Source: a virus
DNA: 42,844 nucleotides
Direction: 5' to 3' (one strand)
Virus record (IMG/VR): IMGVR_UViG_3300028047_000001
Within the stretch, counting starts at the first letter, position 1. Each line of letters starts with the position of its first letter. Below are positions 22,607-42,844 of the stretch, piece by piece. A program made the translations under genes and the position numbers. The notes under the pieces are model-generated. The model ran no database searches. It saw nothing but the letters and a program-made list of their open reading frames with translations, and had not been told where the DNA came from.

Positions 22607-22912
22607 CTAATCTCCCTCTTCCTCGTCGTGATGATGCCAATGGCGGCCGCGATATCCGCCTCGCATCCACCGGTCGTGATCCCATCCGCGCCTATCGATG
22701 CGATCATGGTCCCAATGACGGTCCCTATGCTCGCCGCGCGGCATGACACCACGCATTACACCGCCGATGATTTCTTCCGCCGGATTGCGCTCCCACCAGC
22801 ATTGACCCCATTCATTGCATCTTTGCTCCGCAGCAGCCGGAGCGCTGGCCGCAATTATAAGAGCCGCCGGACTAACCGACGCTAGAGTTACCGCTAATAG
22901 CAACTGTTTCAT
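22607..22912 (-). CDS. Exported His/Arg/Asp/Trp-rich mini-protein
   Basis: 101 aa with a signal peptide ending AAA|EQ, then CNEWGQCWWE and HRDRHWDHDRIDRRGWDHDRWMRGGYRGRHWHHHDEEEGD. Confidence 0.55.
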   Translation of the reverse strand: MKQLLLAVTLASVSPAALIIAASAPAAAEQRCNEWGQCWWERNPAEEIIGGVMRGVMPRGEHRDRHWDHDRIDRRGWDHDRWMRGGYRGRHWHHHDEEEGD

Positions 22913-22928: not shown

Positions 22929-23315
22929 TTATCCTATTCGCCATACCAGGCTATCGCTAAAGACAGGGACGAAATTACCGCCACCGCCTACTACTACCTG
23001 ACCTATTCCTGTAGTGGTATCCACTGTCGAGTCTGTCGCCATACCCCGCGTATTTGTATTTGCCGTAGCGGCAGGTAACTGCGCCACCGTGCACGGTGCC
23101 AAGATGGCCTTCGAGAACGCCGCCGATAACGCCGTCACGGTAGCCGTGAGCGCCGTAACCGCCGTGTTCAGCGTCACCGCCGCGGTAATGACAGAATTTA
23201 CGCTTATCAGAAGTTTCGTCCAGAATTCCCGCCATACCGGCACCATCGTGTTACCAACAAATTCATTCGACTGCGGCTCCGGCAGAGGCGGGACTAGGGG
23301 ATTAATCACTGTCAT
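22929..23315 (-). CDS. Tail needle/plug-like coiled-coil protein (gp26-position)
   Basis: 128 aa. Heptad-like LLISVNSVITAAVTLNTAVTALTATVTALSAAF, followed by a small C-terminal domain. Lies immediately after the gp10-like gene. Confidence 0.4.
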   Translation of the reverse strand: MTVINPLVPPLPEPQSNEFVGNTMVPVWREFWTKLLISVNSVITAAVTLNTAVTALTATVTALSAAFSKAILAPCTVAQLPAATANTNTRGMATDSTVDTTTGIGQVVVGGGGNFVPVFSDSLVWRIG

Positions 23316-24775
23316 GCGGTCATCGCCGCGATTGGTGTTTGAGACTGCATCCTGGCGCCCACGCCCATTGTGGCGCTTAGCAATCCGACGTAGACCGGAT
23401 CAGACACCTTCAGTTTCCATACCCTGCCATAGCGGCTTGTTTGGCCGGTCTGCAACACAGCCACTACCTGTCCGTTCTTACCGCCGCGGCCAAGAGCGCG
23501 CTGGATTGGCATTTTAAACGTTGCCCCGCCATCTTCCGACCAGGAAATATCCACAATGGGGTCCGTCGATGTCTGGCTCAGACCATCCGATCTGCCGGTG
23601 CCGGTGATAAAATTAAAATCGGCTCGCGGCACAACCATTCTGGAAGGGAACTGAATAACAGGAAGAGACGTCAGCTCCCATTGAAGTGCACTGCCATATT
23701 CGGAAAATGCCTCCCCGTCGATTACGCCGATATTGCCGGTTGCAAAATCTCCCACAATCCACATACCGAAGGCGTAAATTGACTGTTCGATCCTGGAGAA
23801 TGATTGTTGATATGACGTCCGCTCCTGCCATGTCGCAGTAATGAGATCGAAGGTGAACGTGAAATCTGCACTCGATAGTTGCCAGAACGCATGTCCGTCA
23901 TTCATATAGACATTCGCTCGCAGTGTCGTTTTGTCATCCACTTCCTGAATGCGCCGTTCAATATCATTCGTCGATATCCTGTATGGCTGATATCCTTGCA
24001 TCATGTACACAACTGAATCGGAACCGACCCAAATCAGACTTGAGGTAAAATTGCTTTCATAGCCGGCGATCGCCTGGGCATTGATCAGGCCTCGTGGGAT
24101 CACCGCTGAGCGAGAGAACGGAAAGCCTAGCGGGTTCGCTGTATCTGTCCACGCTTCGCACCGTGACGGGGTGAAAAGGAATAAAGTTTGTGCGAACCAT
24201 ACGCCCCGAACAAGCCCATCTGATGCCGAATTGACCGTGATTTGATTCAACAGATTGATAGACGTTCCATTCAAGGCACTTGCTATGCATTGCCCATTTC
24301 CATATGTGAAGAAGAAGTAGCCGTCCCCGAATGTGACGGAGTTTGGAAACCCGATATTCCCATCCGGGTATGGCGTCGGAGTTCCTGACGTGTGAAGCGT
24401 AAAGGCGCCATTCTCCGTCACCGCGACGATGTCAGGCGTAGGCGATTTGTTATTCACCGCGACACTGACGATTTTACTGCCATCTAAATGGCCAAGGGCG
24501 GTCATTGTTACAACTCCGCCAGCGGCAGTAAGGGCTTCCACGAAGCCATTGAATATCACAAGTACGGTCCCAGGATTGGCGAGCACAAATCCCCGGCAAT
24601 GAATAGATCCAGACGCACTCGCCGCATATGAGGATACTCCTGGAGCGCGTTTATATACTGTGGTTTCACCTGCCCCTGTCGGCTCCATAATTACATTCTT
24701 AAGTGTGCCAATACCAGCCCGCTGCGGCTGGTCCTTAGTTGGCACCTTTGGCCACGGAATAGTAACTTGTGGCAT
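23312..24775 (-). CDS. gp10-like tail hub / packaged-DNA stabilisation protein
   Basis: 487-aa beta-rich protein immediately after the gp4-like domain. The size and position match P22 gp10. The N-terminus (PWPKVPTKDQPQRAGIGTLKNVIMEP) resembles that family. Confidence 0.45.
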   Translation of the reverse strand: MPQVTIPWPKVPTKDQPQRAGIGTLKNVIMEPTGAGETTVYKRAPGVSSYAASASGSIHCRGFVLANPGTVLVIFNGFVEALTAAGGVVTMTALGHLDGSKIVSVAVNNKSPTPDIVAVTENGAFTLHTSGTPTPYPDGNIGFPNSVTFGDGYFFFTYGNGQCIASALNGTSINLLNQITVNSASDGLVRGVWFAQTLFLFTPSRCEAWTDTANPLGFPFSRSAVIPRGLINAQAIAGYESNFTSSLIWVGSDSVVYMMQGYQPYRISTNDIERRIQEVDDKTTLRANVYMNDGHAFWQLSSADFTFTFDLITATWQERTSYQQSFSRIEQSIYAFGMWIVGDFATGNIGVIDGEAFSEYGSALQWELTSLPVIQFPSRMVVPRADFNFITGTGRSDGLSQTSTDPIVDISWSEDGGATFKMPIQRALGRGGKNGQVVAVLQTGQTSRYGRVWKLKVSDPVYVGLLSATMGVGARMQSQTPIAAMTA

Positions 24776-27700
24776 TTACCAGTATCTCCGGCCGTATGGA
24801 TTTCTGGAAAACAACTCTACCCGCATGGTCTGCCGCGGCGTGCGCAATCTCACGATATCCTTGAGTGTTCCCTCGGCCTCGCCTCCCATGCCGCCCTTTG
24901 CCTGCAAGGTTTGCAGCTTGGCCGGGTCAACGATGGTGAATGCGCTCGCGCACTCGTAAGCCATGATCTTGACCAGCGGCAGGAATTGCGCGTTTGAGAT
25001 ATTATCCGCGTCGATATGGGCTACATCCCGTTCATTCAGCTCCTCCAGCTTCGGGAACAGGCGGCCAATGATCGTCATCGCGTCTTCCGAGGCGACCGGC
25101 TGGCCGCTCTCTAGCACGCCTAGATCCTGGAGCACCGCTACTGCCAAATCGCCAAGCTGCGGGGTATTCGGCCCGAAGACAAAACTCGCGTTCAAGTTGA
25201 TCAGCCTGGTAGATCCCGATGGCGGGACCGGCGGCACGGGCACTGGTAGGCCTGGCGGAAGCCGTAATGGTATCACAGTTTCGTCAAGAGATACAAATTT
25301 GTAGCGCCTCGGCCTGATGTTGTCGGTGTCGGCCCAGCCATAGTTGAGCGATGGCTGGGAAGGCAACCCGAGCGCGCTAAACAGATCATCGTTAGCGAAC
25401 CGGCTAAACCACCGGCTATAGCGCTTAGGCGCGGGCGCTGTGTCTTCCTGCGTCAGCCAACCCATGCTTGGGGCAACGGCCGCGACCGGCTGATTGAACG
25501 ACAACTCGTCGAACGGCCGATATCTCCGGCGCAGCGGCCTCGTTTCATCCCATGTCTGCCAGCCAAACGGCAGGGGCGGAAGATTGAACGGGCTAGGCGC
25601 CTGTACCGTCTCGTCCAGACGTACAAAGCGCCGTTTTCTTGGCGCCGTCTCGTCATCGGTTAGCCAGAACGTAGACGGCGTTGGCACTAGCGGCGGCAGG
25701 AAGGCCGAGCTAAGAACAAGTGCGGTCTCATCGAGGCTGATAAACCGCTTCCGGCGCGGGGCGGTCTCGTCGTCCGTAAGCCACATCGTAGACGGCGTGG
25801 CCGCTGGTGCGGTTGGCACGACCGTTAGAATCGCCTCGTCAAGCCGCTGATAGCGCCGCTTTCTGGGCGCGGTATCGTCCCATGTCTGCCAGCCCAGGGC
25901 TGGCAATGGCACAAGCGGCACGAGCGGCTGTAATGCGTCGAGGTCCAGTTGCTGGTACCGGCGCTTACGCGGGGCAGTGTCGTCGGCCGTCATCCATCCG
26001 GAATTCGGCACCGCGCCGATCGGGGAATAAGTGAGAACGATTATGCCGTTGGCGCCCAGACCCGTGCCGGAGGTAAACCTGCCGCCCGCCGCGCCGCCAT
26101 AGAGACCGCCGGCACCCCCAGCCTGGGCTACAGACTGCGCCTTACCGCCGCCGCCACCAGACCCCGCAGTTGCCCCACCTGGGTTGGATGTCCACTCGGC
26201 ACCATTGCCGCCGGCTCCTGGAGGATTGCCGCCTGCTCCGCCCGCACCGCCAAAACCGGCATCGCCGCTCGCGCCTGCTATTCCCGACGAGGAATTACCC
26301 GCTCCATTGGGCCCGGCGGCACCGCCGCCGCCATGCCCTACGCCGCCTGTACCGCCTGCAAAGACCGTAGAGCCGACGCAATTCGTCGTGACGCTGGCGA
26401 TGCCAGCCGCGACGATCGTGGAGGCATTTGTGCCCCACGTATTGGCCGTCGGGCCCGTACCAGCGCCAACAGAGCCGCCATGAAGGCCAATTTGATAGGT
26501 GAATGTCGCCGGCAGGACGTAATTGACGATCTTGGCGTAACAGCCTGCGGTTGCCCCGGTAGTGCCAGAGCTATCTCCGCCGGCGCCTATTGCCTCGATC
26601 GTGTTGTTCGCATCGTTCCAATCGCCAGGACGGTTAAATGACGTCCCGGAGGTGAGAAAGATAACAATCTGGGTGATTGGCGGCAGGCCGAGCGTGCTAA
26701 TGACGTGGGCCGTCTCGTCCAACTGGCGATATTTGCGCTTTGGTTGGGTATGGTTGTCCGAGGCATTCCAGTACAAGCTCGGCGTGCCAACGATCGCCGG
26801 CAAACCTATGGCGTTAGGCGCCTGTGTTGTCTCGTCGAGAGACCTCGATTTCTTCTTTGGCTGAGTTGGGTTATCGGACGCGTTCCAGCCAAAATTTGGA
26901 GCCGGAGTGGAACTGAATACGTCCGTTAAATGAACGCCAGCCGTGTCGGTTAGCGGAAAACCTAGCGTATCGGTTAAATCATGGGCCCCGATGGGGCCGC
27001 CTGCGACCGTCCTTAGCGGCTGTGCGGTTTCATCAAGCGGGCGATATTTCCTTATAATTCTCGGTGTTTCGTCACGGGTTAGCCATCCTGAAGGAGGCGC
27101 CGGAAGGCCTATCCGGCTCGGCACCAGAATAGTCTCGTCCAGGCTTTGATATTTCTTGCGCCTTGGCGGCGTTTCGTCCTGTGTTATCCACCCCGAGGCC
27201 GGGACTGGAACCGACGGGGGCAGCGCGGCATAGACAGTTTCATCAAGCGGGCGATATTTGCGTCTAATTGGTCCCGTATCCTCCCAGACATACCAACCGA
27301 AGTTTGGATCGATTCTCGGCGGAATAGCGCCATTGTCCGAAGGCGTCAGAATTACATACCGGCGCTTTCTTGGCGCCGTCTCGTCCTGGGTAATCCATCC
27401 AATATTCGGCAGCGGGATGATTTTCGGGGGCGTAAATGCCGCTTCGTCCCGCCGCGCGATACGGCGGCGGGCCCATGATGGACTATCGTTAGCATTCCAT
27501 CCGAAATTGTTCGTTGAGAGCGGCGTATAGGTAATGACGATAATGCCGCCGCCGCCGGCAGTTGCGCCGCCGCCGCCGCCACCGTATTGGCCGCCGGCCG
27601 CGCCATTACCACCACCGCCGCCGGAACCGGCATGGGTACCGCCTGGATTCGATGTCCATTCGGTGCCATTTCCGCCCGCAACGCCATTAGCGCCGCCTGC

Positions 27701-28123
27701 GCCGCCGAAGCCAGCGTCTCCATTGCCGCCGGAGAATCCGCTTGCCGAGGCACCGGCTCCGTTCGGACCGCCCGCGCCGCCGCCGCTGCCTGAACCCTGC
27801 CCGCCGCCGGCAAATTTGGTTGTGCCAACGCAATTGGTTGTTACGGTGTCAGCGCCAGCCGCGACGAGTGTCGAGGCGTCTTTAAGCCACGTATTCGACG
27901 TTGGCGCAGTACCTGAGCCCGTCGTGCCGCCATGCACACCGATCTGATAAGATACGGTCGCGGCCATGGTAAAGTTGGAAATGCTGGCGAAGCAGCCGCC
28001 TTTACCGGTACCGCCGCCATCAGCGGCAGCGCCGATCGCCTCAATTTTATTGGCTGCGTTGTTCCAGTCGGCCGGACGCGTGTAACTCGTGCCACTGGTA
28101 AGAAAAACAACTGTGTCGGCCAT
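24776..28123 (-). CDS. 1115-aa repeat protein: two [Gly-rich domain + 7 W-x-DET-PRKRRY units] modules fused to a gp4-like head-to-tail adaptor domain
   Basis: aa 1-200 and 485-700 are paralogous glycine-rich domains (VFLTSGTS..RP.DWN.AN.IEAIGA...GGGG...IIV.TY.P). Fourteen short units begin at W209, 243, 277, 312, 347, 413, 452, 710, 745, 781, 820, 855, 889 and 930. aa ~975-1115 (LGDLAVAVLQDLGV...SEDAMTIIGRLFPKLEEL) parallel P22 gp4 (GDLVRAALRKLGV...MQDAVDDLEAMMAEW). Confidence 0.55.
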   Translation of the reverse strand: MADTVVFLTSGTSYTRPADWNNAANKIEAIGAAADGGGTGKGGCFASISNFTMAATVSYQIGVHGGTTGSGTAPTSNTWLKDASTLVAAGADTVTTNCVGTTKFAGGGQGSGSGGGAGGPNGAGASASGFSGGNGDAGFGGAGGANGVAGGNGTEWTSNPGGTHAGSGGGGGNGAAGGQYGGGGGGATAGGGGIIVITYTPLSTNNFGWNANDSPSWARRRIARRDEAAFTPPKIIPLPNIGWITQDETAPRKRRYVILTPSDNGAIPPRIDPNFGWYVWEDTGPIRRKYRPLDETVYAALPPSVPVPASGWITQDETPPRRKKYQSLDETILVPSRIGLPAPPSGWLTRDETPRIIRKYRPLDETAQPLRTVAGGPIGAHDLTDTLGFPLTDTAGVHLTDVFSSTPAPNFGWNASDNPTQPKKKSRSLDETTQAPNAIGLPAIVGTPSLYWNASDNHTQPKRKYRQLDETAHVISTLGLPPITQIVIFLTSGTSFNRPGDWNDANNTIEAIGAGGDSSGTTGATAGCYAKIVNYVLPATFTYQIGLHGGSVGAGTGPTANTWGTNASTIVAAGIASVTTNCVGSTVFAGGTGGVGHGGGGAAGPNGAGNSSSGIAGASGDAGFGGAGGAGGNPPGAGGNGAEWTSNPGGATAGSGGGGGKAQSVAQAGGAGGLYGGAAGGRFTSGTGLGANGIIVLTYSPIGAVPNSGWMTADDTAPRKRRYQQLDLDALQPLVPLVPLPALGWQTWDDTAPRKRRYQRLDEAILTVVPTAPAATPSTMWLTDDETAPRRKRFISLDETALVLSSAFLPPLVPTPSTFWLTDDETAPRKRRFVRLDETVQAPSPFNLPPLPFGWQTWDETRPLRRRYRPFDELSFNQPVAAVAPSMGWLTQEDTAPAPKRYSRWFSRFANDDLFSALGLPSQPSLNYGWADTDNIRPRRYKFVSLDETVIPLRLPPGLPVPVPPVPPSGSTRLINLNASFVFGPNTPQLGDLAVAVLQDLGVLESGQPVASEDAMTIIGRLFPKLEELNERDVAHIDADNISNAQFLPLVKIMAYECASAFTIVDPAKLQTLQAKGGMGGEAEGTLKDIVRLRTPRQTMRVELFSRNPYGRRYW

Positions 28124-28145
28124 TCAGGCAACTCCAATGGCCGAC

Positions 28146-28904
28146 TTATAGCTCTCCGGCGGTAACTTGGGCGTCAAACGGCGTGCATGTGTTCGTTCCA
28201 TCTGAGCCAAATGAGGCGTCAAGCCAGCGGGCGGCGCTCAGAGTGAGGCCGCTAATCACGCCAGTAATGGCAAACGGATGGGGCGCGAACGAGCTATCCA
28301 TCGTAATTGTCATAGTCGAGCCGATCGCGGTTCCCGTCAGAGCCGCGCCATTAACCGGCGCGGTGCCTGTTCCATGTCTGATTCTAAATACACATTGTCC
28401 GCCAACCGCGGTGTTTTGCACTGAGCCATAAATGGTCACCATTACAGTGCCGGTATTCGTTGGCGTGATGGATCCGGCAAGCCCCATCATAACTGGCGTG
28501 GCTGAGGTTGTTGCTCCTGGCGCGCTAACCGACGTCATCGAGGATGCGGGCGTTTTATAGGTCACGCTTTGAGTGGGCCACGATCCGCCGATCGTTATTC
28601 CGTTACCGGCGGTAATCCCCACGCCGGTCCATGTGACATTTGCGCCTTGGATAGTGAAACCAGAGCCCGCTGCCCCCGATGTCAGCGTGCCAACGCCAAC
28701 TAGGTTCGGTAAGGACGTAATGGAGGTCGTGATGCCCGCGAAGGAGCACTGCCGATTCAGCGTGCCAGGCGTCGGCTCGCAATACCATGTCTCAGTGCCA
28801 ACATAAGGCGTCGTGGCCGGTGAATAATTCGTCGGTGGATTTTGGGCGCACGCATGCGAAATAGCGCCAAAGAGCACCGCCACTGATAATATGAGCTTTC
28901 TCAT
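28146..28904 (-). CDS. Exported beta-rich protein of unknown function
   Basis: 252 aa with a signal peptide (MRKLILSVAVLFGAISHACA|QN) and Thr/Gly/Ser-rich beta-type sequence. Coupled to the upstream tailspike gene (overlap 28901-28904). Confidence 0.55.
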   Translation of the reverse strand: MRKLILSVAVLFGAISHACAQNPPTNYSPATTPYVGTETWYCEPTPGTLNRQCSFAGITTSITSLPNLVGVGTLTSGAAGSGFTIQGANVTWTGVGITAGNGITIGGSWPTQSVTYKTPASSMTSVSAPGATTSATPVMMGLAGSITPTNTGTVMVTIYGSVQNTAVGGQCVFRIRHGTGTAPVNGAALTGTAIGSTMTITMDSSFAPHPFAITGVISGLTLSAARWLDASFGSDGTNTCTPFDAQVTAGEL

Positions 28905-30604
28905 GTGCCTCCCACGGATTGTAGCGCCGCCTTATCAAGCAGGCCATATGTCACATTTTCCCATGCGAGGGTGATATAAAAATCGCGATATTTCCCAGGC
29001 GCAATTGTCGTTAAACCGTTGAGCGTCCATCCGGCATTGGTGGTGAGTGTCCATATCCCGGAACCGCTCCCAGCGCCATTTATTACCCTGAGTTTATACG
29101 ACTGCCCCCTCGCTGGATATGTGTTCGCTCCCATCGCGGTAATAAGTTGAGCGGCGGTCGGCAATTGTGCATTTGAGGCCGCGGTGATCGCCCCTGTCAA
29201 CTCCAGGGTATGCTCATGCAATGCAGTGCCAAATATGTCCGCGGCGGCCAATACCGTCGAGGCGGACGTCGATGCGTTTGCCGAATAGTCCTGATACGGC
29301 AGCATCGGGCCAACCAGACAGATGCCGTTGCCGAGCGCGTCTGTCTTTACACCGAGAGCGGTTGGAACATTCCCGTTGTAAGGAATAACTGAAACGGATG
29401 CTCCAGAGACACCAAGCGAAACAAACAATCCGATGATATTCACTACATGCGTGTTGGAGTCGAACGTGCGTTGATTGACGAATATTGCAGCCGCATTGTT
29501 TTGATTGATAGAGAGAGCAATCAACTCACATCCAATCAGCGTCGCCTCAGTGTTGACGAACTCCCATAGTCCCTGCAATGGCGTGGTTCCAGTCACCGTA
29601 GGGAATTCCGACTTGGATGCGATAATCGTCACATTGGTTCCAGCAATCGATAATTGCGGGAAGTTAGAATATGTCCCTCCGTTGAATTCATGTCCGATTA
29701 TCAGCATGTTATCGGCCGCGCCGACTAGTATGTCCGGCTCGGTGGCTAAATCGCATCTTGCATAATTGTCTCGCAGAATGATATTAGGCTGGCCAGGCAT
29801 TGATATACAATTCAAGTATAAGAATGCGCCACTAACACTCTGGCTTTTCGTGCACTTGTTGATTGTGATACCCCACACTGGGATAGATGTCGCCAGTGGA
29901 TTACACGCGATACAGCGGAAGCCTCTATCGAAATGACAATGGTCTATCGTAATGTTCCAACATGAGGCGTTGAAATATAGAGCTACTGCGTTAGTATTTG
30001 TGGCTGGCTGGTTCGTACTCCAGCGGAAAAAGATTCTATAGAAATTAAATCCCCATATGCCCTGTGTGAAAATGAAAATCTGAGTGTTGTTTGTCACCTG
30101 CTCCAATATTACACCGCCAAGACCGATCTCAGCGCTCTCACCAGCCCCTTCTATCGTCCAACCGTATCCTGTCCCGACCGTCAGCGCGGAAGTTAGTAAA
30201 TACGTTCCTGCCGGAATGAACCCATGGGCACCATTTGCCACGACATAATTGACGAATTTCTGGAGCGCAGGCGTATCGTCAGTCACGCCATTGCCGGTGG
30301 CGTTGAACCATCCGGCGTTCACTATGTCGTTTAGAACAAGCTGAAACCACCTCCCGCTGGCATCCTGGATTGCCATAGGACCAGCCGACGTGGCGCCTTG
30401 GCTGGTGTATAGCGCCCCGGCGCCATTATCTCCTGGCACCACGGAGCCAGACATAAACAGCGTAATTGCGCCGAGGGTCAGCGTGGGGATTTGCGCTCTT
30501 GTGACTGTCCCCACGGTCGCCGCCGATTTCCCGTACAAATCCGCGAGGTTCGTTTGGATCGCATCAAACGAATAAGAGTGCTCGGTGATTGGCAGCTCCG
30601 CCAT
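28901..30604 (-). CDS. Tailspike, pectate-lyase-fold (right-handed beta-helix) depolymerase
   Basis: 567 aa. NAGWFNATGNGVTDDTPALQKFVNYVVANGAHGFIPAGTYLLTSAL is the Pectate_lyase_3-type N-cap motif. Its N-terminal ~25 aa are shared with the neighbouring spike. Confidence 0.7.
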   Translation of the reverse strand: MAELPITEHSYSFDAIQTNLADLYGKSAATVGTVTRAQIPTLTLGAITLFMSGSVVPGDNGAGALYTSQGATSAGPMAIQDASGRWFQLVLNDIVNAGWFNATGNGVTDDTPALQKFVNYVVANGAHGFIPAGTYLLTSALTVGTGYGWTIEGAGESAEIGLGGVILEQVTNNTQIFIFTQGIWGFNFYRIFFRWSTNQPATNTNAVALYFNASCWNITIDHCHFDRGFRCIACNPLATSIPVWGITINKCTKSQSVSGAFLYLNCISMPGQPNIILRDNYARCDLATEPDILVGAADNMLIIGHEFNGGTYSNFPQLSIAGTNVTIIASKSEFPTVTGTTPLQGLWEFVNTEATLIGCELIALSINQNNAAAIFVNQRTFDSNTHVVNIIGLFVSLGVSGASVSVIPYNGNVPTALGVKTDALGNGICLVGPMLPYQDYSANASTSASTVLAAADIFGTALHEHTLELTGAITAASNAQLPTAAQLITAMGANTYPARGQSYKLRVINGAGSGSGIWTLTTNAGWTLNGLTTIAPGKYRDFYITLAWENVTYGLLDKAALQSVGGT

Positions 30605-30610
30605 AGCCGC

Positions 30611-32158
30611 TCAATTCGGTGCAATAGCGGCAACGAATAGATCGGCCAGCAGCTGCCCAAGCGCTACGCTACCTGGCCTTGTCGGATGCACCCCATCTGC
30701 CGACACGAACAGGTCACAGTTGCCGAAGCCCTGGAGGGCACCTATCTTGCCGCGGCCAGTCAAATAACTGCTCCCCACCTGCCTGTACGGTGTCCACTTG
30801 GCATGAGCGTACTGCATCGCACCATCAAATGTCACGGAGTAGTACTCCGATCCGCTGTCCACGGCGCTCGCCGCCCATGATTTGATTTGTATCCTCTCGC
30901 GCACCGCGCCGGTATCGACTTCGATGGTGCCGCCAACTTGCGGCATGTCGGAGCCGCCAATGCCTGGCGTCATTGGGAACACGAACACGGTCGTGTCGCT
31001 AGGATTACTCGCGCCAGCCCAGTTGGATCCAGGGACTTGAAGCATGGTGGCTGCTGGCTGAATTTGGCCAGCGGGGATCGAATATGGCAGCTCCATCAGA
31101 TCCAGCCAGAGACCGCCTGCATTCAGGCAGGCCTTTTTCAATGCATCGTGGATATCGAGATTATTGGCCGTCCAAGTATTGCAACCTTGTTTCGTCGTAT
31201 ATGCGACTGCGAGCATGGCCCCGCTGGCGATGATCTGATTGTAGAGAAGAGTCGCCTCAACGCCCATTGCGCCAGGGTTCTGCCCAACATCATTGACGCT
31301 ACCCAGGACAATCACTAGCTCAGGATTGTATGCAAGCACGTCATGCTTGATGACATTGCGAAACGTCGGCACGGTCAGGCCGTTGTTAGAGAGGTATCCA
31401 CGCCCGCCCTGACCGCCGGTGGTCCAGACATCATCCCAGCGCATTGCCTCGCTAAACGCGACGGTGCAGTCGACGCCGGTTACGTCTACCGTTGAATTGA
31501 GAAAACTGTCACCAACGAACATCACCCGGGGACCGCGAATCGGAGCGGCATACACCGTGTCCGTCTGCCCGTGATTAAGCCCCATCAGTGTGAGATTCAG
31601 CCCGATGACGTCTATCCGTCTGCGTTTAGTACCGCCGACCGCTGTAAAATCATACTTGAAGAAGGTTGGGACGCCGTTAGAGCCCTGATTAGTTGGCGTC
31701 ATGCTGACATACTGATCGTCGACCTTGACCACGAAATAATTCAACGCCTGGCCCTGAATGATCAGTTCGAAGATCGGGCCCTCATGAATGAATGAATAGC
31801 CCATGCTCCACATGCCGAAGGTCTGGACCGGATAGGTATTGGTTACATTATTCGTCGCCATGCCTGGACAGCGAGAAATCGAGTACCAGTCAAGAGGATA
31901 TGACCCCATTGCGATACCGCCAATGGTCGTATTGGTGTATCGAGAAAACGGGGTTGTCATAGATGTGGCGGTACCGGTGGTGACCGTCGGCGGGGAAGCC
32001 ATGACTTGCTGCACCGTCTGCGGGCGCAGCGGAAATTGCACTCTGGAATTTCTAAGCGATAATTTGTTGTTAGTACCGAAGCGGCCGTATAGATCGGCAA
32101 TGTCGGCCCTGATCGCGTTGAACGCGTTTGAATTCTCTGGAATTGGGATCAGGGCCAT
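30611..32158 (-). CDS. Tailspike with SGNH esterase domain
   Basis: 515 aa. SGNH blocks are VMFVGDSF (I), GGRGY (II), LGSVNDVG (III) and ADGVHPT (V), with about 190 aa inserted between III and V. The N-terminus (MALIPIPENSNAFNAIRADIADLYGR) matches the other spike (MAELPITEHSYSFDAIQTNLADLYGK). Confidence 0.65.
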   Translation of the reverse strand: MALIPIPENSNAFNAIRADIADLYGRFGTNNKLSLRNSRVQFPLRPQTVQQVMASPPTVTTGTATSMTTPFSRYTNTTIGGIAMGSYPLDWYSISRCPGMATNNVTNTYPVQTFGMWSMGYSFIHEGPIFELIIQGQALNYFVVKVDDQYVSMTPTNQGSNGVPTFFKYDFTAVGGTKRRRIDVIGLNLTLMGLNHGQTDTVYAAPIRGPRVMFVGDSFLNSTVDVTGVDCTVAFSEAMRWDDVWTTGGQGGRGYLSNNGLTVPTFRNVIKHDVLAYNPELVIVLGSVNDVGQNPGAMGVEATLLYNQIIASGAMLAVAYTTKQGCNTWTANNLDIHDALKKACLNAGGLWLDLMELPYSIPAGQIQPAATMLQVPGSNWAGASNPSDTTVFVFPMTPGIGGSDMPQVGGTIEVDTGAVRERIQIKSWAASAVDSGSEYYSVTFDGAMQYAHAKWTPYRQVGSSYLTGRGKIGALQGFGNCDLFVSADGVHPTRPGSVALGQLLADLFVAAIAPN

Positions 32159-36145: not shown

Positions 36146-36368
36146 TCAGGCCACCATATCCAAATCGCAAACAAGGCAAACATCAGCATTGGCAGGACAT
36201 AATCCATTACATGGACCGCCGGCTAGCGAAACCGGTCCTCCGCATTGCGGCGTGCACGCTCACACTACGGTCCATTCACTTTACCCCCATAATCAGAATC
36301 GCCATGACTAGAATTAGCCCTTCAATGATAGCAACTGGGATCGCGATGAAATAGCAAAAGTGTTTCAT
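36142..36368 (-). other. Chain of three translationally coupled micro-ORFs (30, 22 and 21 aa)
   Basis: 36276-36368 encodes MKHFCYFIAIPVAIIEGLILVMAILIMGVK, with its ATG overlapping the portal stop. 36207-36275 encodes MDRSVSVHAAMRRTGFASRRSM. 36142-36207 encodes MDYVLPMLMFALFAIWIWWPE, with TAATG and ATGA junctions. Confidence 0.35.
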
Positions 36369-38677
36369 TCTCCCTGCCCTGGCAATGGCGCGTAATGGCC
36401 CTCAGGAAGCGCGGGGGGCGGCTCGGACTGCGGCTGGTTAGATTCACCAGGATTGCCCGTCGCAGCTGGTCCTTGTCCTCCTGAGGGGGTTGACGGCGGG
36501 GAAGAAGCTGAACTTGAAAGATCGCCTTCCCCGCCGTCATTGCCAGAACCTGCGGGGGTCGAGGCCGCAAGTCCGGCAGTTCCGCCATGCAAATGCTTGT
36601 CGATGTCGGTCAATGCCATATCCACATTACCGATCCAAGCGTGAAGCTTGGCGCTATCGATCGGGGGCCCGGCGGCCGTCATAGCCGCCTGCACTTCAAC
36701 CGTAGCCTTGACGTTCTGTAATCTTTGATATTCCAGCTTGAGCTTTTCCAACTCGACCTCGTATACGGCTTTTGCGGCATGCCCTTGCGCTTGTGCCTGG
36801 TGGCCTTGCGCAGTAGCCATTTCGCCCTGTGCCTTGGCCATTTCCGTCTTCATTTGCATCTCATGCAGAGGATTTGGCGGCGGAGGCTGCGGCGGAGGAT
36901 GATTGTGCCGCTTCGCTAGGATCTGCTGGACCTGCGGCGGCGCCAGAGTGGTAAGTAACTCCGTAATGAGATCCGAATTGGGCCAATCCTGCAAATCGGC
37001 CATGACAGGAGCAAGTACGGGCGCAGAAGGAGGAAATGCCGTAACAAACGACGTAATGCCCTCTCTGGCCTCTTCCCGCTTTGTCGCATAGCTCGGCCCA
37101 ATCTCCATCTGCACATCATAGGCGCCAGTGGTCATGTCGTTCAGCATGTCGATTGCAACGCCTTCGATCGCCACCCCCTGGGGCTGATTGATCGGCACAC
37201 GCTTCTCAGTGCCATCTACTCCGATGACGCGAACCGTGCGCGATGTATCGTAATAGTGCGGTAGGAGATCATTAAGTATCCGCGCCGTATGCATGATCGA
37301 TAGGGCGAAATTGTCCATGTAAACGAACGTGCCCGTATCGCCCTGCTTCTCCCGCTTTTGGATTGCAGTGCCGCTAATCTCATTGCTCTTCGCGCCAAGG
37401 CTCGCGTTGTAGATCCCGATAACCGCCTGCATGTCCTGCTCGGCCATAACAACACATTCCGTAAGTCCCGAACCAGAGGCTGGCGGATTTTGTCTTTGCG
37501 GCGGTGCATTCCCATTTCTTGGATCCGGCTTGTATCTCAAAAACGGCCAGTTCTTGACATTGGCCGTGTTCCATTCATTCTCGTAATCCTTAAAGTTGTC
37601 CTCCGTACCGATAAAGGGTGCCTTTGGCTGCAAGCCAACAAACTCCGTTTGTGTGGAGCGGGCATAATTGTAAGCACGCTGTGGGTCCGCCGCGAACCTG
37701 ACAATGCCATGCCTGACGACCTTTGCTCCAACACGGACCTCTTCGCCAATTACCGGCACAACGGGAATAAACCGTCCCGGCCAATCCTCCGGTTCGCTTA
37801 TGAATTCCACCGCATTCATCATTCGCCATTTTATCTTATGCCCTGCTTTCTCAACTACCTTGCCGCCCTCGGCCTTCATGCGGGCAATGTCATCACGATC
37901 AGCGTCGGTCAGATCCTCGTAGCCGCCGTTCGGCATTTTCATTAGCTTGCGCTTGGTTTTCACCTTGTACCAATAGCGCGCGACCCGAATTAACTCATCG
38001 CGAAACCATTCCATGTTGAGGGAGTTGGTGCCGAGATCGCCAGTGGGATAGCCGGGAAATGTCTCGAGATACGCCTCCCGCGTCATATCTACGGGCGTAA
38101 AGCACCACATTGCGTCTCTACGCGTCGGATGTTTTGCATCTGGGTCCCACATAACCGAAATTTGATCGTCAATGAGCCGTACCCCGAGTTCCTGCTCAAA
38201 TGTGCTGTCATCGGCATATTCGCTAAACACTTCCCAGTGCCCGATACCAGCTGCAACCTGCGAGTCCGCCGCGGCGGTATATATTCGCGATGCATCTGAC
38301 CGATTCTCAATGTATCTGATGAGCCCACTCTTTATCTCCGCGATTTTCTCGTCGGCGCCGTCGTCGCAGGGAACCACTTTAATAGAGGGCCGCATTTGTC
38401 GCATGTCGCCCGTAACTTGTCGTTGGAACTGTCCCATCCGATTGAACATGAGGACAGGTCTTGAATCAGCCTCGCGCTGCAATCTGAGATCCTCTGGCCA
38501 TTGCTCTCCAGCCAGGAATGCAAGGTCTTCGTAGCCTCGATCGATGTTATCACGCTCTTTCACCCATGCCCTGTTCCATTGCTTCATGGCCACCGCATGC
38601 TCGACCTCCTCGGCCGCTGCATGCGGATTCTCGTCCGTCTCTTTCTCTGGCGCCTCAGCGGCGTCTACATCAGCCAT
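36365..38677 (-). CDS. Portal protein, P22-like with long C-terminal helical barrel region
   Basis: 770 aa. GEQWPEDLRLQREADSRPVLMFNRMGQFQRQVTGDMRQMRPSIKVVP...GIGHWEVFSEYADDSTFEQEL is portal-like. The C-terminal ~170 aa are helical and low-complexity, as in P22 gp1. Confidence 0.8.
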   Translation of the reverse strand: MADVDAAEAPEKETDENPHAAAEEVEHAVAMKQWNRAWVKERDNIDRGYEDLAFLAGEQWPEDLRLQREADSRPVLMFNRMGQFQRQVTGDMRQMRPSIKVVPCDDGADEKIAEIKSGLIRYIENRSDASRIYTAAADSQVAAGIGHWEVFSEYADDSTFEQELGVRLIDDQISVMWDPDAKHPTRRDAMWCFTPVDMTREAYLETFPGYPTGDLGTNSLNMEWFRDELIRVARYWYKVKTKRKLMKMPNGGYEDLTDADRDDIARMKAEGGKVVEKAGHKIKWRMMNAVEFISEPEDWPGRFIPVVPVIGEEVRVGAKVVRHGIVRFAADPQRAYNYARSTQTEFVGLQPKAPFIGTEDNFKDYENEWNTANVKNWPFLRYKPDPRNGNAPPQRQNPPASGSGLTECVVMAEQDMQAVIGIYNASLGAKSNEISGTAIQKREKQGDTGTFVYMDNFALSIMHTARILNDLLPHYYDTSRTVRVIGVDGTEKRVPINQPQGVAIEGVAIDMLNDMTTGAYDVQMEIGPSYATKREEAREGITSFVTAFPPSAPVLAPVMADLQDWPNSDLITELLTTLAPPQVQQILAKRHNHPPPQPPPPNPLHEMQMKTEMAKAQGEMATAQGHQAQAQGHAAKAVYEVELEKLKLEYQRLQNVKATVEVQAAMTAAGPPIDSAKLHAWIGNVDMALTDIDKHLHGGTAGLAASTPAGSGNDGGEGDLSSSASSPPSTPSGGQGPAATGNPGESNQPQSEPPPALPEGHYAPLPGQGE

Positions 38678-39883: not shown

Positions 39884-40646
39884 CTTGGTTGAGCTGAATC
39901 ACCCCAGCATATTCCGGAGACTGAACTAAGTCTTCACCGGTCGATGCCTTGTCACCGGTCCAGTAGGAATTATACCAGGAATTACCGTTCTGCGTGCAAT
40001 CGCTCGTTCGCGGGCTCGGCAGTGAGAATGTCATGCTCGGATCAACGCCGATGATCGCATAGAAATCATCCGGTCCGCTTCCGCCATGCTGTGCATGGAA
40101 GATTCTCACCGAGACGACCTTCATTCCTAGGCCTGTCGCCCGGTTAACTACCATGGTCAGAACTGCAGGGGTGTCTTGCACCGCGATCGGGCATGCATTG
40201 CCATGCGGCGCATTGCCGGCACTCTGGTTCATAATCACGGTGCCGCTCGGGGTCTTAACATCGAGGCCTTCCGAATGGGTGATGACCACGGTGTTAACAT
40301 TCGACTCCTTCGTGAGCGCCCAGGCGAAGAACGAATTAGCCGTCTGGGTAGCGGTGCAGTCCTGCGACGGAGGACCAGCATTCGTGCCGCACCCCTGCGA
40401 GGGACACTGCAGATCGGCATTGATCACGAAATACAAGTCTGTGCCGTTCTTAAAGATGCGCCCAGAGTGAATCGCCATGGCCTTGTTCGTGGTGGCATTC
40501 CACACTTCGGTGTGGACATTTGCACGCCCTCCGCCGATTGACACCTTAGGGCAAGTGCCTTGTGCTTGCGCGCCAACTGTGCCAAGCCCGTACCAGGCAA
40601 TAAGCCCAGCCGCCATAATCAATCCGCCGTCTACATATTTTCTCAT
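39873..40646 (-). CDS. Exported protein of unknown function (accessory)
   Basis: The track ORF starts at 40658. The ATG at 40646 overlaps the TerL-C stop (TGATG) and gives MRKYVDGGLIMAAGLIAWYGLGTVGAQA|QG. The mature part is Cys-containing. Confidence 0.55.
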   Translation of the reverse strand: MRKYVDGGLIMAAGLIAWYGLGTVGAQAQGTCPKVSIGGGRANVHTEVWNATTNKAMAIHSGRIFKNGTDLYFVINADLQCPSQGCGTNAGPPSQDCTATQTANSFFAWALTKESNVNTVVITHSEGLDVKTPSGTVIMNQSAGNAPHGNACPIAVQDTPAVLTMVVNRATGLGMKVVSVRIFHAQHGGSGPDDFYAIIGVDPSMTFSLPSPRTSDCTQNGNSWYNSYWTGDKASTGEDLVQSPEYAGVIQLNQGAQ

Positions 40647-41575
40647 CACCCCATCCATCCATGTGTTCCGCCGGCCAACCGCACACTGCGATCGCTTGGC
40701 GGCCGCTTTACATCTGCGAAACGTTTCATCATTCTAGCATATCTGCTGGCCGATAGCACGTCATCACGCTCCTTAACGATTTGGCCGTTCTTGCGATGGA
40801 ACAGCCGGAACTCGCTAAACCATACCTCATTACCGGGGAATACCCTCCAGCGGCCCGTCAGCATGCACTCGTACATATCCTGAATGCCAGCTTCCAAGCC
40901 ATAACCACCTTCCTCGTGCGTGGCATGCTCCCCAAGCATATTCAATCCGTGCCCGCGATACTGCGCTGCAAGCTGATCACCTGAGCCTTTGTCGTGTTGC
41001 AAACCATCGTGGGGCCAAGCGATGGGTACCCAGAGCCCCCAGGGCCTAAGTGCCGCCGCATGGATCGGAGCACTCGCGCCCGACTCGCGGTAGGTAGCCA
41101 CGACATAAAATATGTCGTCATCTCTGTCCCACGCGCACCTGGCGGCTGCAAACGGATGATCGTAGCCAAAATCTACTCCTATGATTTGCGGGAAATGCCT
41201 CGGAATTTCAAACGCCTCACAGCGCAGCTTATCCTCCTCCACGGGGAATACCCGGCCTGAGCCCAGAGCAGGAATGCCCTTAACCCGCGCCTCCTGTTCC
41301 CAGGCCGGATAGCTAGCGATGATAGCCGCGCGCTGTGCATCCGTGTAATGTAAGGCGTCATCGATCGTGGCTTGTATGACTACGCGGCCCGGGGAGACTG
41401 TCACTGTGCCCACTTCCATGCCATTGCATATATCAGCGGCGAGAGGATAACGAGCCAGCCGATAATAGCACCTATGACAAACATGACTAAGTCCCAGAAC
41501 GACGTCACTGGTTAAGCCGCGCTTCGGCAGTCTTGGGAAGGATGATCGGGCTAAGTTGCTGTTTATAGGCGCCAA
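40646..41575 (-). CDS. terL: Terminase large subunit, C-terminal nuclease half (split gene)
   Basis: GRVVIQATIDDALHYTD...ARVKGIPALGSGRVFP...IIGVDFGYDHPFAAARCAWDRDDDIFYVVATYRE...WPHDG matches the TerL RNaseH-like nuclease region. The first ~55 codons (TTG start in the track) look non-homologous. The first ATG is at 41419 and has no SD. Confidence 0.7.
   Translation of the reverse strand: MAPINSNLARSSFPRLPKRGLTSDVVLGLSHVCHRCYYRLARYPLAADICNGMEVGTVTVSPGRVVIQATIDDALHYTDAQRAAIIASYPAWEQEARVKGIPALGSGRVFPVEEDKLRCEAFEIPRHFPQIIGVDFGYDHPFAAARCAWDRDDDIFYVVATYRESGASAPIHAAALRPWGLWVPIAWPHDGLQHDKGSGDQLAAQYRGHGLNMLGEHATHEEGGYGLEAGIQDMYECMLTGRWRVFPGNEVWFSEFRLFHRKNGQIVKERDDVLSASRYARMMKRFADVKRPPSDRSVRLAGGTHGWMG
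41401..41484 (-). CDS. Possible 27-aa hydrophobic peptide inside the terL insert
   Basis: Below the ORF-track cutoff. Encodes MFVIGAIIGWLVILSPLIYAMAWKWAQ. Weak SD. Confidence 0.25.
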   Translation of the reverse strand: MFVIGAIIGWLVILSPLIYAMAWKWAQ

Positions 41576-41840
41576 GTAGCATTGGCGATGGTTCCGAGAT
41601 CCACATAACTGCAGCCATATTCAGCTGCACGCTTTCGCCGGCAAGAATGTTTGTTGATTTAAGAACCGGGTTCATTGTCATTTGCCCCTGCGGATCAATA
41701 CGCAGCACAGTGGGGTGCCTTAGTTCCGCCGACAGACTCTCTGGCTCCGGGCCAATAAGCTCACCGATAACATCGATCCCGCCAATCATAGTCAGTACGC
41801 AAATGCGTGATTCCGTCATGCTAATTTTATTGATCTTCAT
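41505..41840 (-). CDS. 111-aa protein encoded by the insert that splits terL (unknown; small beta-barrel/Sm-like guess)
   Basis: The ATG overlaps the TerL-N stop (ATGA at 41837-41840). The sequence ICVLTMIGGIDVIGELIG...LRHPTVLRIDPQGQMTMNPVL...VQLNMAAVMWISEP has no nuclease (HNH/GIY-YIG/LAGLIDADG) motif. Confidence 0.5.
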   Translation of the reverse strand: MKINKISMTESRICVLTMIGGIDVIGELIGPEPESLSAELRHPTVLRIDPQGQMTMNPVLKSTNILAGESVQLNMAAVMWISEPSPMLLGAYKQQLSPIILPKTAEARLNQ

Positions 41841-42541
41841 GCTCCTGCTCCCATGAATAACTCAACCACTTCGCTCCAGCCCAACAATGGCGTAAACGTC
41901 ATGTAAACGATACCGCCTGTTTCGTTCGTCCGTGTCAAACATTCGAAATACAAGTCTATATCACATTCCTCGTCGAGCCAGACAACCTCTCTCCCCGCAC
42001 CTTGGAACTTCTCGCGGCCAGACTCATACGATTTGAATTGGAGAACGGACACACCGCCAGTTGAATGCTTGACGCCAACCGTATCGATTGCATTGGCGGC
42101 GCCTCGAGCCAAGGATGGTTTGAGAATCAAATCGCCTGGGATTAGCCCAGTGCCCCAAGCCTCTTGGCGGTCCGGAGGGCCTATCAGCTTTTCCTGGACG
42201 ATGTCGCGGGTGGCGGTGTTAGTAACTCCTGCAGCCCACGCTCGTACCGGTTTATCGAAGCGCTTGCCCACCCACCATGCGGGATACAAGCCCGTAAGGT
42301 GCATGGCCATCTCTGCAGCTCCACATTCGGTCTTTCCAAAGCGGTTAGCTGCCATAATGAGCCGCTCGCGATGAGTTGCTCCTGCGGCATGAAAATCAGC
42401 TTGTTTCGGATATGGGCAGTATCGGAATAGCTTCGTGCGATCTATGCGTCTCTGACGTTCTATCAACATCTCCGCATACAATCGCTTCCTCTGCTCGTAA
42501 GTCTGCGGATAGTCGTCTAATTGTAGCGCTAAGTTCGTCAT
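41837..42541 (-). CDS. terL: Terminase large subunit, N-terminal ATPase half (split gene)
   Basis: 234 aa. YPKQADFH, Walker A (AANRFGKTECG), Walker B (VVWLDEE) and the coupling motif (YMTFTPLLGWSEVVELF). It ends in a stop where intact homologues continue into the nuclease domain. Confidence 0.75.
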   Translation of the reverse strand: MTNLALQLDDYPQTYEQRKRLYAEMLIERQRRIDRTKLFRYCPYPKQADFHAAGATHRERLIMAANRFGKTECGAAEMAMHLTGLYPAWWVGKRFDKPVRAWAAGVTNTATRDIVQEKLIGPPDRQEAWGTGLIPGDLILKPSLARGAANAIDTVGVKHSTGGVSVLQFKSYESGREKFQGAGREVVWLDEECDIDLYFECLTRTNETGGIVYMTFTPLLGWSEVVELFMGAGA

Positions 42542-42827
42542 CGTTCATACTCTCGACAACGGACACATTCACATTCACGTCTTTTGGCAGTATGGCTACT
42601 GCGGCGCGTAGATAGTCGACAGGAGACTTCTTACGTACTGCAGCGATAGCTGCTCTACCGTACTGTACCCAGTCCTCATAGAAGTCCACTGTGAAATGTT
42701 GCGCATATTGCGCCCTACTGCCACGAGGACGCCCGCCCATTCCAGTATGGCCAAGTTTAAACTGGCCTGTCGCAGAACGCTGTGGCGAGCTCGCTGGCTG
42801 GGGGGTTTTAGTTTCCGCTACGTCCAT
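42396..42827 (-). CDS. Small-terminase-like protein
   Basis: 143-aa ORF immediately upstream of terL. TGQFKLGHTGMGGRPRGSR resembles the F-x-KG-x-SGNP-GGRPKG motif of small-terminase-like (DUF5681-type) phage proteins. Its 3' 146 nt overlap the TerL-N ORF. Confidence 0.5.
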   Translation of the reverse strand: MDVAETKTPQPASSPQRSATGQFKLGHTGMGGRPRGSRAQYAQHFTVDFYEDWVQYGRAAIAAVRKKSPVDYLRAAVAILPKDVNVNVSVVESMNDDELSATIRRLSADLRAEEAIVCGDVDRTSETHRSHEAIPILPISETS

Positions 42828-42844
42828 ACCAAAAACTCGCTCAA
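42746..42844. repeat. Terminal direct repeat, copy 2 (identical to 1..99)
   Basis: See copy 1; 99/99 identical. Confidence 0.95.

Follow-up and report, generated by a model that had tools for sequence, protein, structure and literature searches.

A 42,844-nucleotide (nt) stretch of viral DNA (IMG/VR record IMGVR_UViG_3300028047_000001), referred to here as the window, represents a P22-like podophage of ~42.7 kb, and on its minus strand it contains an open reading frame (ORF) of 1115 amino acids (aa) that appears to fuse a diverged head-to-tail adaptor of the P22 gp4 type to a large N-terminal extension. The extension carries two predicted adhesin-type domains, each followed by a stalk built of short repeats. 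The best reading of this arrangement, considered somewhat probable, is that it would form adhesin whiskers anchored on the phage neck through the adaptor. The neck ring of this phage would then probably serve as a host-binding organ. The parts of the ORF and the gene that follows it are listed below.

24776..28123, minus strand: putative adaptor-whisker fusion ORF, ATG start, 1115 aa, 115.5 kDa; the orthologue P0056 (1154 aa) on contig L009 has the same architecture.
28132..28135, minus strand: GGAG Shine-Dalgarno (SD) sequence 8 nt before the ATG of the long form, the upstream sequence ending attGGAGttgcctgaATG; SD pairing −5.9 kcal/mol.
27509..28123, minus strand: glycine-rich domain 1, aa 1-205, 30% Gly, related to PF21722; homologues with E values down to 2.5e-32; aligns with domain 2.
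26672..27508, minus strand: W-unit array 1, aa 206-484, seven ~35-aa units, 13% Pro, acid-base-acid charges.
26915..26983, minus strand: conserved 3x LTD[TV] element, aa 381-403, HDLTDTLGFPLTDTAGVHLTDVF, between units 5 and 6; also present in P0056.
26006..26671, minus strand: glycine-rich domain 2, aa 485-706; AlphaFold2 (AF2) predicted local distance difference test score (pLDDT) 90-97 over module residues 1-220.
25238..26005, minus strand: W-unit array 2, aa 707-962, with the seven most conserved copies of the unit; predicted to be disordered.
25196..25237, minus strand: junction or linker, aa 963-976, Pro-rich, its sequence unconserved but its frame kept in the DNA alignment with L009.
25193..25195, minus strand: in-frame TTG (Leu977), candidate internal start of a 139-aa adaptor, with AGG at 9-nt spacing.
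24776..25195, minus strand: predicted gp4-type adaptor domain, aa 977-1115 plus stop; a core of five helices, then a conserved C-terminal arm RLRTPRQTMRVELF.
23312..24775, minus strand: tail hub or gp10 homologue, 487 aa; matches phrog_578, 'head closure Hc3' (P22 gp10), E 3e-73.

The coordinates and length that a first-pass annotation had assigned to the fusion ORF were exactly right. The extension consists of two modules, aa 1-484 and aa 485 to ~965, in each of which a domain of ~205-220 aa and ~30% Gly is followed by seven units anchored by a Trp (W-units), giving the 14 units (7 + 7) that had been described. The suggestion that the extension is a tandem duplication of a ~485-aa module is borne out by alignment of module 1 with module 2, which extends over 444 columns at 52% amino acid identity and scores 1025, against 63 ± 9 for shuffled sequences. 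The glycine-rich parts of the two modules are ~72% identical in DNA.

The last ~140 aa of the ORF had been described as gp4-like. The Pfam model of the gp4 family, PF11650, has no match up to E 10 in the whole ORF or in its last 152 aa taken alone, and it matches none of the 109 members of the adaptor family assembled around this domain. Single-sequence searches with the whole ORF and with each domain returned nothing significant in Pfam, NCBIfam or PDB sequences, and in PHROGs the C-terminal domain matches only the unannotated phrog_29314. Homology to the gp4 family was nevertheless detected by profile-profile comparison: in hhalign, the 109-sequence adaptor-family profile aligns over 102 columns with a 10-member gp4 family (94.8% probability, E 4.9e-8), the alignment of which was built from P22, Sf6, APSE-1, Vibrio, Klebsiella, Ralstonia, Proteus, Pseudomonas and metagenomic phages, and it aligns with P22 gp4 alone at 59% (E 9e-5). 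When the same profile was compared with 177,635 PDB sequences, P22 gp4 and related gp4 chains made up four of the top five matches, each with an E value of ~0.3 and each aligned N-terminus to N-terminus with the adaptor family. An hhalign probability of 91% was obtained with a 117-aa gene annotated as 'adaptor' in cyanophage Pam5. The position of the gene is that of an adaptor. Homologues lie directly upstream of a gp10 (PF11134) gene in contigs L001, L003, L009, L011, L012 and L013, as does the adaptor of Pam5, and in the window the TAA stop of the fusion ORF is immediately adjacent to the start codon (ATG) of the gene at 23312-24775, which had been called gp10-sized and is a gp10 homologue by its phrog_578 match; its orthologues carry PF11134.

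The AF2 model of the C-terminal domain (pLDDT 66) shows five helices followed by an unstructured, extended and conserved C-terminal tail. Its best fold match in the PDB is Sf6 gp7 (probability 0.51, template modelling score 0.43, E 0.86), a non-significant match, and P22 gp4, which ranks 8th, is likewise individually non-significant; the second match in BFVD is annotated as 'Tail accessory factor GP4' (probability 0.77). Sf6 gp7 possesses a globular domain made of helices, together with an arm at the C terminus that is slotted in between protomers of the portal and whose tip lies on the coat (PMC9728967), and the five-helix core and extended tail of the model agree with this anatomy. Because synteny, PDB sequence ranking, profile-profile and fold evidence converge, the C-terminal domain is accepted as a putative diverged member of the gp4 adaptor superfamily lying outside the current Pfam model, on evidence that is remote but convergent.

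Enlarged adaptors are found elsewhere in this family. Among the best 150 adaptor-family representatives, 44 contain two to eight tandem copies of the ~100-aa helical core (e.g., P0055, P0059 and P0061-P0065), and in the tandem-core adaptors inspected the C-terminal arm is present on the last copy only. The genes of P0055 (7 copies) and P0062 (8 copies) both stand exactly in the place of the adaptor gene, upstream of gp10 (PF11134). The tandem-core loci are as follows.

L012:3237-5603: tandem-core adaptor.
L013:4468-7017: tandem-core adaptor.

Twelve is not a multiple of copy numbers such as 5, 7 and 8, and for this reason the extra cores would presumably be appendages on the outside rather than parts of the ring; the family's sequences indicate that N-terminal additions to the adaptor are tolerated. 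No precedent for adaptor-fibre fusions or for tandem adaptors was found in the literature, the coverage of which was incomplete and is not proof of novelty. A length difference of another kind is seen in Pseudomonas phage AH02 (L021; MZ501271.1, 7418-8161), whose annotated gp4-type 'head-tail adaptor' of 247 aa is ~80 aa longer than P22 gp4, apparently by means of a C-terminal extension.

The first-pass annotation had suggested comparing aa 1-200 with glycine-rich phage domains, and structure comparison of the glycine-rich domain points to an adhesin fold. A search with module 1 retrieves 44 proteins, most of which have the domain at the N terminus; the homologues share the conserved pattern FLTSGTSWTVP...DWN...IEAIGAGG...GIIVITYTP, and GGGxGG motifs are present in the domain of the window. 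The two copies in the window have no match in Pfam and fall below the threshold of PF21722 (Gly_rich_2). The link to that family is transitive, passing from the window to P0013 (E 4.7e-26), which, together with P0015, P0026 and P0035, matches PF21722 over its full length and at or above the cut-off. The high pLDDT given above was obtained with the retrieved homologues as the alignment, and Foldseek matched the resulting model to the fibre protein gp24 of phage Pam3 (7ypx_A, probability 1.00, E 8.9e-5; 7yfw_a, probability 0.96), to a tail-tip chain of mycobacteriophage Bxb1 (9d93_Qb, probability 0.93) and, more weakly, to the glycine-rich domain (GRD) of ALK. The distal part of the Pam3 gp24 fibre combines a tumour necrosis factor (TNF)-like fold with a lattice of glycine-rich motifs, has been proposed to recognise the receptor, and resembles the S16 gp38 adhesin (PMC9608196); the polyproline II (PPII)-bundle class has also been noted in Bxb1 gp33 and gp29 (PMC13243192). 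According to the models, the glycine-rich domain has a TNF-like/PPII-bundle adhesin fold, and each chain is predicted to carry two such adhesin-type domains. This amends an earlier description of the domain, which does belong to a described function class, that of phage adhesin folds.

At L006:2459-5481, on an SU10-type podophage contig, the glycine-rich-domain protein P0011 is directly followed by a GDSL-like gene (495 aa). The pairing of GDSL and glycine-rich genes in this contig and in the window (30611-32158) suggests a mobile 'adhesin plus esterase' cassette.

The W-units form a stalk of ~270 residues behind each glycine-rich domain. The Trp anchors are located at W209/243/277/312/347/413/452 in array 1 and at W710/745/781/820/855/889/930 in array 2, with a core unit spacing of 34-36 aa in both. 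The unit of array 2 reads W-x-T-x-D-[DE]-T-A-P-R-[KR]-[KR]-R-[YF]-x-x-L-D-E-T, and an alignment of 24 units from the window protein and its orthologue has one invariant Trp and the consensus P-x-x-G-W-x-T-x-D-x-T-x-P-x-R-R-R-Y-R-x-L-D-E-T; the core of each unit presents acid-base-acid charges, and a hydrophobic, Pro-rich linker comes after it. In the window there are five matches to a degenerate DNA pattern of this core, where 100 shuffles predict none. The composition of the arrays (13-14% Pro) is that of a flexible, polyampholyte-like chain, and AF2 returns pLDDT values of 30-50 without secondary structure over the array; this is a monomer prediction with a very shallow alignment in that region, from which it follows only that such a prediction detects no autonomous fold in the array. 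In comparison with L009, the ratio of nonsynonymous to synonymous substitution rates (dN/dS) of the W-units is ~0.12-0.13. Because this ratio is low, the Trp is invariant and the charge pattern is fixed, the motif itself is under selection. Unit numbers differ between the window protein (7+7) and P0056 (about 4+11), indicating that the arrays expand and contract, and in P0056 the 3x LTD[TV] element (HDLTDTLGFPLTDTAGVHLTDVF) is found at aa ~345-370, directly before the second glycine-rich domain.

The first-pass annotation knew of no described function for this unit, and nothing resembling it was found in the collections searched beyond the orthologue P0056. The unit has no relative in Pfam, PHROGs or NCBIfam or among the retrieved proteins with the glycine-rich domain, and neither its profile nor the repeat region gave anything meaningful among PDB sequences. 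A word-indexed search of 5.8 billion proteins, taking the best 8000 candidates, found no W-unit and also missed P0056, and is therefore a weak negative. The repeat alignment found no carrier in tblastn-confirmed scans of the IMG/VR viral and Joint Genome Institute (JGI) metagenome collections, nor did the degenerate DNA pattern in viral, metagenome or GTDB genome collections; the L009 phage is the only other one in which the 35-aa unit was seen. Short Pro-rich repeats also follow the glycine-rich domain in P0011, P0012 and P0025, and to a W-unit hidden Markov model these are unrelated. By these comparisons the layout of an adhesin domain plus a repeat stalk recurs, and the W-unit repeat appears to be lineage-specific.

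The proposal that the adaptor is made as the C terminus of a giant protein is supported by a second, diverged phage. A profile search of 1.84 billion representatives identified P0056, whose parts come in the same order, on an independent JGI phage contig of 41.6 kb (L009), where its gene is directly followed by a PF11134 gp10 gene. Between the two fusions, synonymous sites are saturated (proportion of synonymous differences, pS, 0.67-0.81), and both frames run uninterrupted for >1100 codons. The proportion of nonsynonymous differences (pN) is 0.079 in the adaptor domain (92% amino acid identity), 0.21 and 0.15 in glycine-rich domains 1 and 2, and 0.25-0.43 in the W-unit arrays; in the 18 codons of the junction (aa 963-980), the least conserved segment, it reaches 0.62 (pS 0.72, 33% identity). 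Because pS is saturated yet the frame is open, with pN graded by region, the whole fusion including its repeat arrays is judged to be kept by purifying selection.

These data bear on whether the fusion might be an artefact, either of repeat misassembly or of a sequencing error that deleted a stop or a frameshift between a fibre gene and an adaptor gene. The window is a short-read metagenomic circular assembly, and all of the close adaptor homologues are stand-alone, both of which would suit such an error; it is nonetheless extremely improbable, given an uninterrupted fusion in an independent contig despite saturated synonymous divergence, modules that are only ~72% identical in DNA, and stops in the non-coding frames across the junction. 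DNA repeats within the gene are no longer than 51 nt and the units are 60-91% identical to one another, so that confusion of a k-mer assembler is not expected. An assembly artefact was rejected on the independent occurrence of the fusion, the divergence of the modules and the lack of long exact repeats, and by the same sequence comparison the fused ORF is genuine and is predicted to encode a single polypeptide. Whether that polypeptide stays intact is a further point, as a processed pro-region had been offered beside a collar or whisker apparatus: the extension would be cleaved near the junction to leave an adaptor of normal size, with the N-terminal part acting as an assembly chaperone, a free adhesin or a decoy. 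The dibasic-rich cores (PRKRR) and the predicted disordered stalks should be protease-sensitive, but the junction is where conservation is lowest and the two orthologues have no cleavage motif in common there, no head-maturation protease was found in the P22-like scaffold-based structural module, and the strong purifying selection on the two adhesin-fold domains fits virion display better. Processing is considered improbable, and of the two proposals the whisker is favoured by the adhesin fold and the pro-region disfavoured by the unconserved junction.

The junction is also where a shorter product could begin. Ten close adaptor homologues (54-75% identity) are all stand-alone proteins of 127-142 aa that start MPSFVFGP..., and in L001 the adaptor starts with a GTG in the same frame as an unrelated fibre-like gene of 330 aa, whose stop lies 6 nt before it, an arrangement that shows how readily a fusion could arise by stop-codon loss. 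A direct precursor (fibre gene, stop, adaptor) was not found in the closest stand-alone relatives, L001, L023 and L024; in L023 and L024 only small genes are located upstream of the adaptor. No ATG had been seen near the domain boundary of the window protein, and correctly so, as the start-capable in-frame codons at aa 930-1000 are GTG and TTG only. The TTG at 25195-25193 (Leu977) is one codon away from the start of the stand-alone homologues, the window reading ...I-N-L-N-A-S-F-V-F-G-P..., and L009 has AGGA-8 nt-TTG at the equivalent position, in junction peptides that are otherwise unrelated. Internal initiation may conceivably yield a 139-aa adaptor. Short and long subunits would in that case be mixed in the ring, and the 24 domains and 168 units per dodecamer that had been calculated, while sound as arithmetic, would be an upper bound that holds only if all subunits are long. 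Carried further, the 139-aa adaptor would come mainly from the internal TTG and build the ring, the 1115-aa form being a minority that gives few whiskers per neck; this may be likened to other long and short isoforms of structural proteins (T7 gp10A/10B, the lactococcal MTP/TpeX pair), although by internal initiation. Such a two-product arrangement is plausible without being probable. The ten homologues start at this very point (with GTG in L001), both fusions retain an in-frame TTG with AGG or AGGA though the junction evolves near-neutrally, SD pairing in L009 (−6.0 kcal/mol, rank 3 of 40 in-frame start-capable codons) equals the median of annotated starts (−5.8), and a mixed ring would ease crowding. 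In the window, however, SD pairing at the TTG is weak (−2.5 kcal/mol, rank 12 of 32), this codon initiates poorly and nearly all genes of the genome use ATG, the site would be covered by ribosomes engaged on the long form, and the support comes from two genomes only. A similar question of form arises for the stalks, whose W-units may fold into a shaft on oligomerisation or partner binding, or line a periodic surface such as the capsid lattice or the spikes with one unit per site. This would account for the strict 34-36 aa period, the invariant Trp and conserved charges, and a dN/dS tighter than is usual for spacers; monomer AF2 with a shallow alignment would be blind to oligomerisation-dependent folding, and P0011, P0012 and P0025 have short lineage-specific repeats of their own behind the glycine-rich domain. 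The proposal is rather doubtful all the same, as a copy number that varies freely (7+7 and about 4+11) argues against a fixed one-to-one lattice match, the Pro content and low pLDDT point to disorder, and no similar motif is found in PDB, Pfam, PHROGs or NCBIfam.

Under the preferred reading, that of adaptor-anchored adhesin whiskers on the neck, the C-terminal 139 aa would bind the portal after DNA packaging as gp4 and gp7 do, with the helical core forming a 12-fold ring that recruits the tail hub and the C-terminal arm inserting between portal subunits, as homology suggests. The N-terminal 976 residues would be a flexible appendage projecting outward from the neck, since the ring surrounds a ~3-nm channel on the outside of the capsid and the extension amounts to ~100 kDa per subunit; the pattern of the family points the same way. 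The neck would be crowned with at most 12 whiskers, on which as many as 24 weak adhesin domains would be displayed, with the W-unit arrays probably serving as extensible tethers whose Trp/charge motif might, more speculatively, make repeated weak contacts with one another or with a periodic partner. From their fold class, the glycine-rich domains would bind weakly to host-surface structures and may provide a multivalent, reversible first contact with the host, through avidity of the kind proposed for lactococcal neck passage structures (PMC6669499), and the whiskers would complement the two enzyme-type spikes encoded upstream (a pectate-lyase fold and a GDSL esterase). The probable origin of such a gene is the in-frame joining of a fibre gene to an adaptor gene that had until then stood alone; the start position of that adaptor gene, surviving as the in-frame TTG, may still supply some unextended subunits.

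Several observations weigh against this reading. The Pfam gp4 model has no match in the protein, and the fold matches of the adaptor model are singly non-significant (E ~1, pLDDT 66). In the PPII-bundle adhesins known so far, the domain is C-terminal and sits at the distal end of a trimeric fibre, while here the two copies are N-terminal or internal on a chain that would be anchored in a ring of 12-fold symmetry; a gene for a fibre chaperone was not identified. Twelve 100-kDa extensions next to six spikes may be crowded, and the disorder of the W-units is drawn from a monomer prediction with almost no alignment depth. A broader form of the reading is put forward as a tentative suggestion only: adaptor-borne appendages would be a widespread neck decoration in P22-like podophages, the 12-fold ring anchoring whiskers or extra cores in a number tuned by internal initiation, and the W-unit would be a Trp-anchored, charge-patterned linear-motif array that contacts a periodic partner (a host polymer, the capsid lattice or neighbouring whiskers) and not a passive spacer.

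Each globular part of the fusion is of a known kind. Like P22 gp4 and Sf6 gp7 (PF11650; PHROG 'head-tail adaptor Ad3'), the predicted adaptor domain is encoded immediately upstream of gp10 in a P22-type portal-scaffold-coat module and has a 'DLVxAxLxxLGV' N-terminal helix; it is also modelled, at low confidence, with a helical core and an extended C-terminal arm. Unlike those proteins, which are free monomers of 160-166 aa, it makes up the C-terminal 12% of a 1115-aa chain, and it is too diverged for the Pfam model and falls in the unannotated PHROG 29314. The glycine-rich domains share their predicted PPII-bundle/TNF-like fold with Pam3 gp24 (7YPX/7YFW), S16 gp38 (6F45), Bxb1 gp33/gp29 (9D93) and the ALK GRD. 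In Pam3 and S16, a baseplate fibre bears the adhesin domain as its distal, C-terminal tip, for which a chaperone is required, whereas in the window protein the domain is N-terminal, occurs twice per chain, is split by predicted disordered stalks and would be anchored at the neck via the adaptor. P0011 and P0025 (from SU10-type podophage contigs) and P0012 have a similar layout, with an N-terminal glycine-rich domain, Pro-rich short repeats and a C-terminal domain; they differ in that the C-terminal domain is not an adaptor and in being stand-alone genes far from adaptor genes. The tandem-core adaptors P0055 and P0062 resemble the fusion in family, in position upstream of PF11134 gp10, in their large N-terminal extension and in having the arm at the C terminus only, but their extension consists of repeats of their own helical core and not of adhesin domains and W-units.

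The neck passage structure (NPS) of lactococcal 936 and P335 phages is a many-copy host-binding module at the head-tail junction that acts by avidity and is non-essential (PMC6669499). The whiskers would be like it by functional analogy only, as a multicopy ancillary host-binding module at the same junction. The NPS is a separate protein that combines its own BppU-like ring domain with a trimeric coiled-coil shaft and with carbohydrate-binding modules at the C terminus; the window protein belongs to a podovirus, uses the essential adaptor as its putative anchor, has the reversed polarity and has a repeat shaft predicted to be disordered. None of the NPS domains (BppU-like ring, coiled-coil shaft, carbohydrate-binding module) was found in the fusion by Pfam, PHROGs or fold search, and no sequence relationship between the two was detected. 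What appears to be new, none of it having been described in the literature found, is threefold: an essential adaptor joined covalently, and in reversed polarity, to domains of the receptor-binding type; the repeat formed by the W-unit; and the commonness of extended adaptors.

Head-to-tail adaptors have been viewed as small, invariant plumbing, and an adaptor that bears ~100 kDa of receptor-binding-type domains would make the neck ring a display platform, with relevance to how podophages first contact cells. This significance has to be read with the limits of two metagenomic genomes and an inferred function. For phage engineering, the N terminus of the adaptor may be a permissive site at which up to 12 binders could be displayed with the tail spikes untouched. 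The frequency of tandem-core and fused adaptors in metagenomes suggests that neck decorations have been missed by annotation as 'hypothetical' proteins, and the strongly constrained W-unit may offer a tractable model for disordered repeat arrays on virions.

In the remainder of the window, positions 1-99 are identical to 42746-42844, in keeping with a circular assembly. Such an identity of 99 nt between the ends is what a de Bruijn assembler at k=99 typically leaves on a circular contig, and the window is probably a complete phage genome of ~42,745 bp. The structural module includes a P22-type portal (36365-38677; PF16510, E 1e-173), a scaffold and a coat protein (PF11651), followed on the minus strand by host-interaction genes, the fusion ORF, the gp10/tail-hub homologue, a fibre protein with an S74 chaperone, and ejection proteins. 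The fusion ORF has no match by tblastn in 50,697 phage records, and 18 kb of the window likewise has none by megablast; the closest annotated relative is Pam5, which is reached through gp10 only (36% identity). A search bearing on prophage origin found no adaptor relative among 185,579 species-representative GTDB genomes, and an Rfam search of the window gave no match. The large terminase gene, at 40646-42541 on the minus strand, is split into an ATPase half (41837-42541, 234 aa) and a nuclease half (40646-41575, 309 aa, TTG start), which are separated by a 111-aa ORF (41505-41840); no intron match to this split was found in Rfam.

Just upstream of the fusion, on the same strand, 28901-30604 encodes a 567-aa protein with a pectate-lyase fold (PF12708; tailspike PHROGs), and 30611-32158 encodes a 515-aa GDSL-esterase-like protein. 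These two share a 26-aa N-terminus (54% identity, E 4e-6), which on this similarity is probably a common virion-anchoring peptide, and the fibre-like gene of L001 starts in a similar manner. Between the spike genes and the fusion lies an ORF of 252 aa (28146-28904, minus strand) with a signal-peptide-like N-terminus, MRKLILSVAVLFGAISHACAQ, and no match in Pfam, PHROGs or NCBIfam; from its sequence it could be a secreted protein or a moron within the structural operon. A 101-aa ORF at 22607-22912 has a signal-like N-terminus similar to that of the 252-aa ORF.

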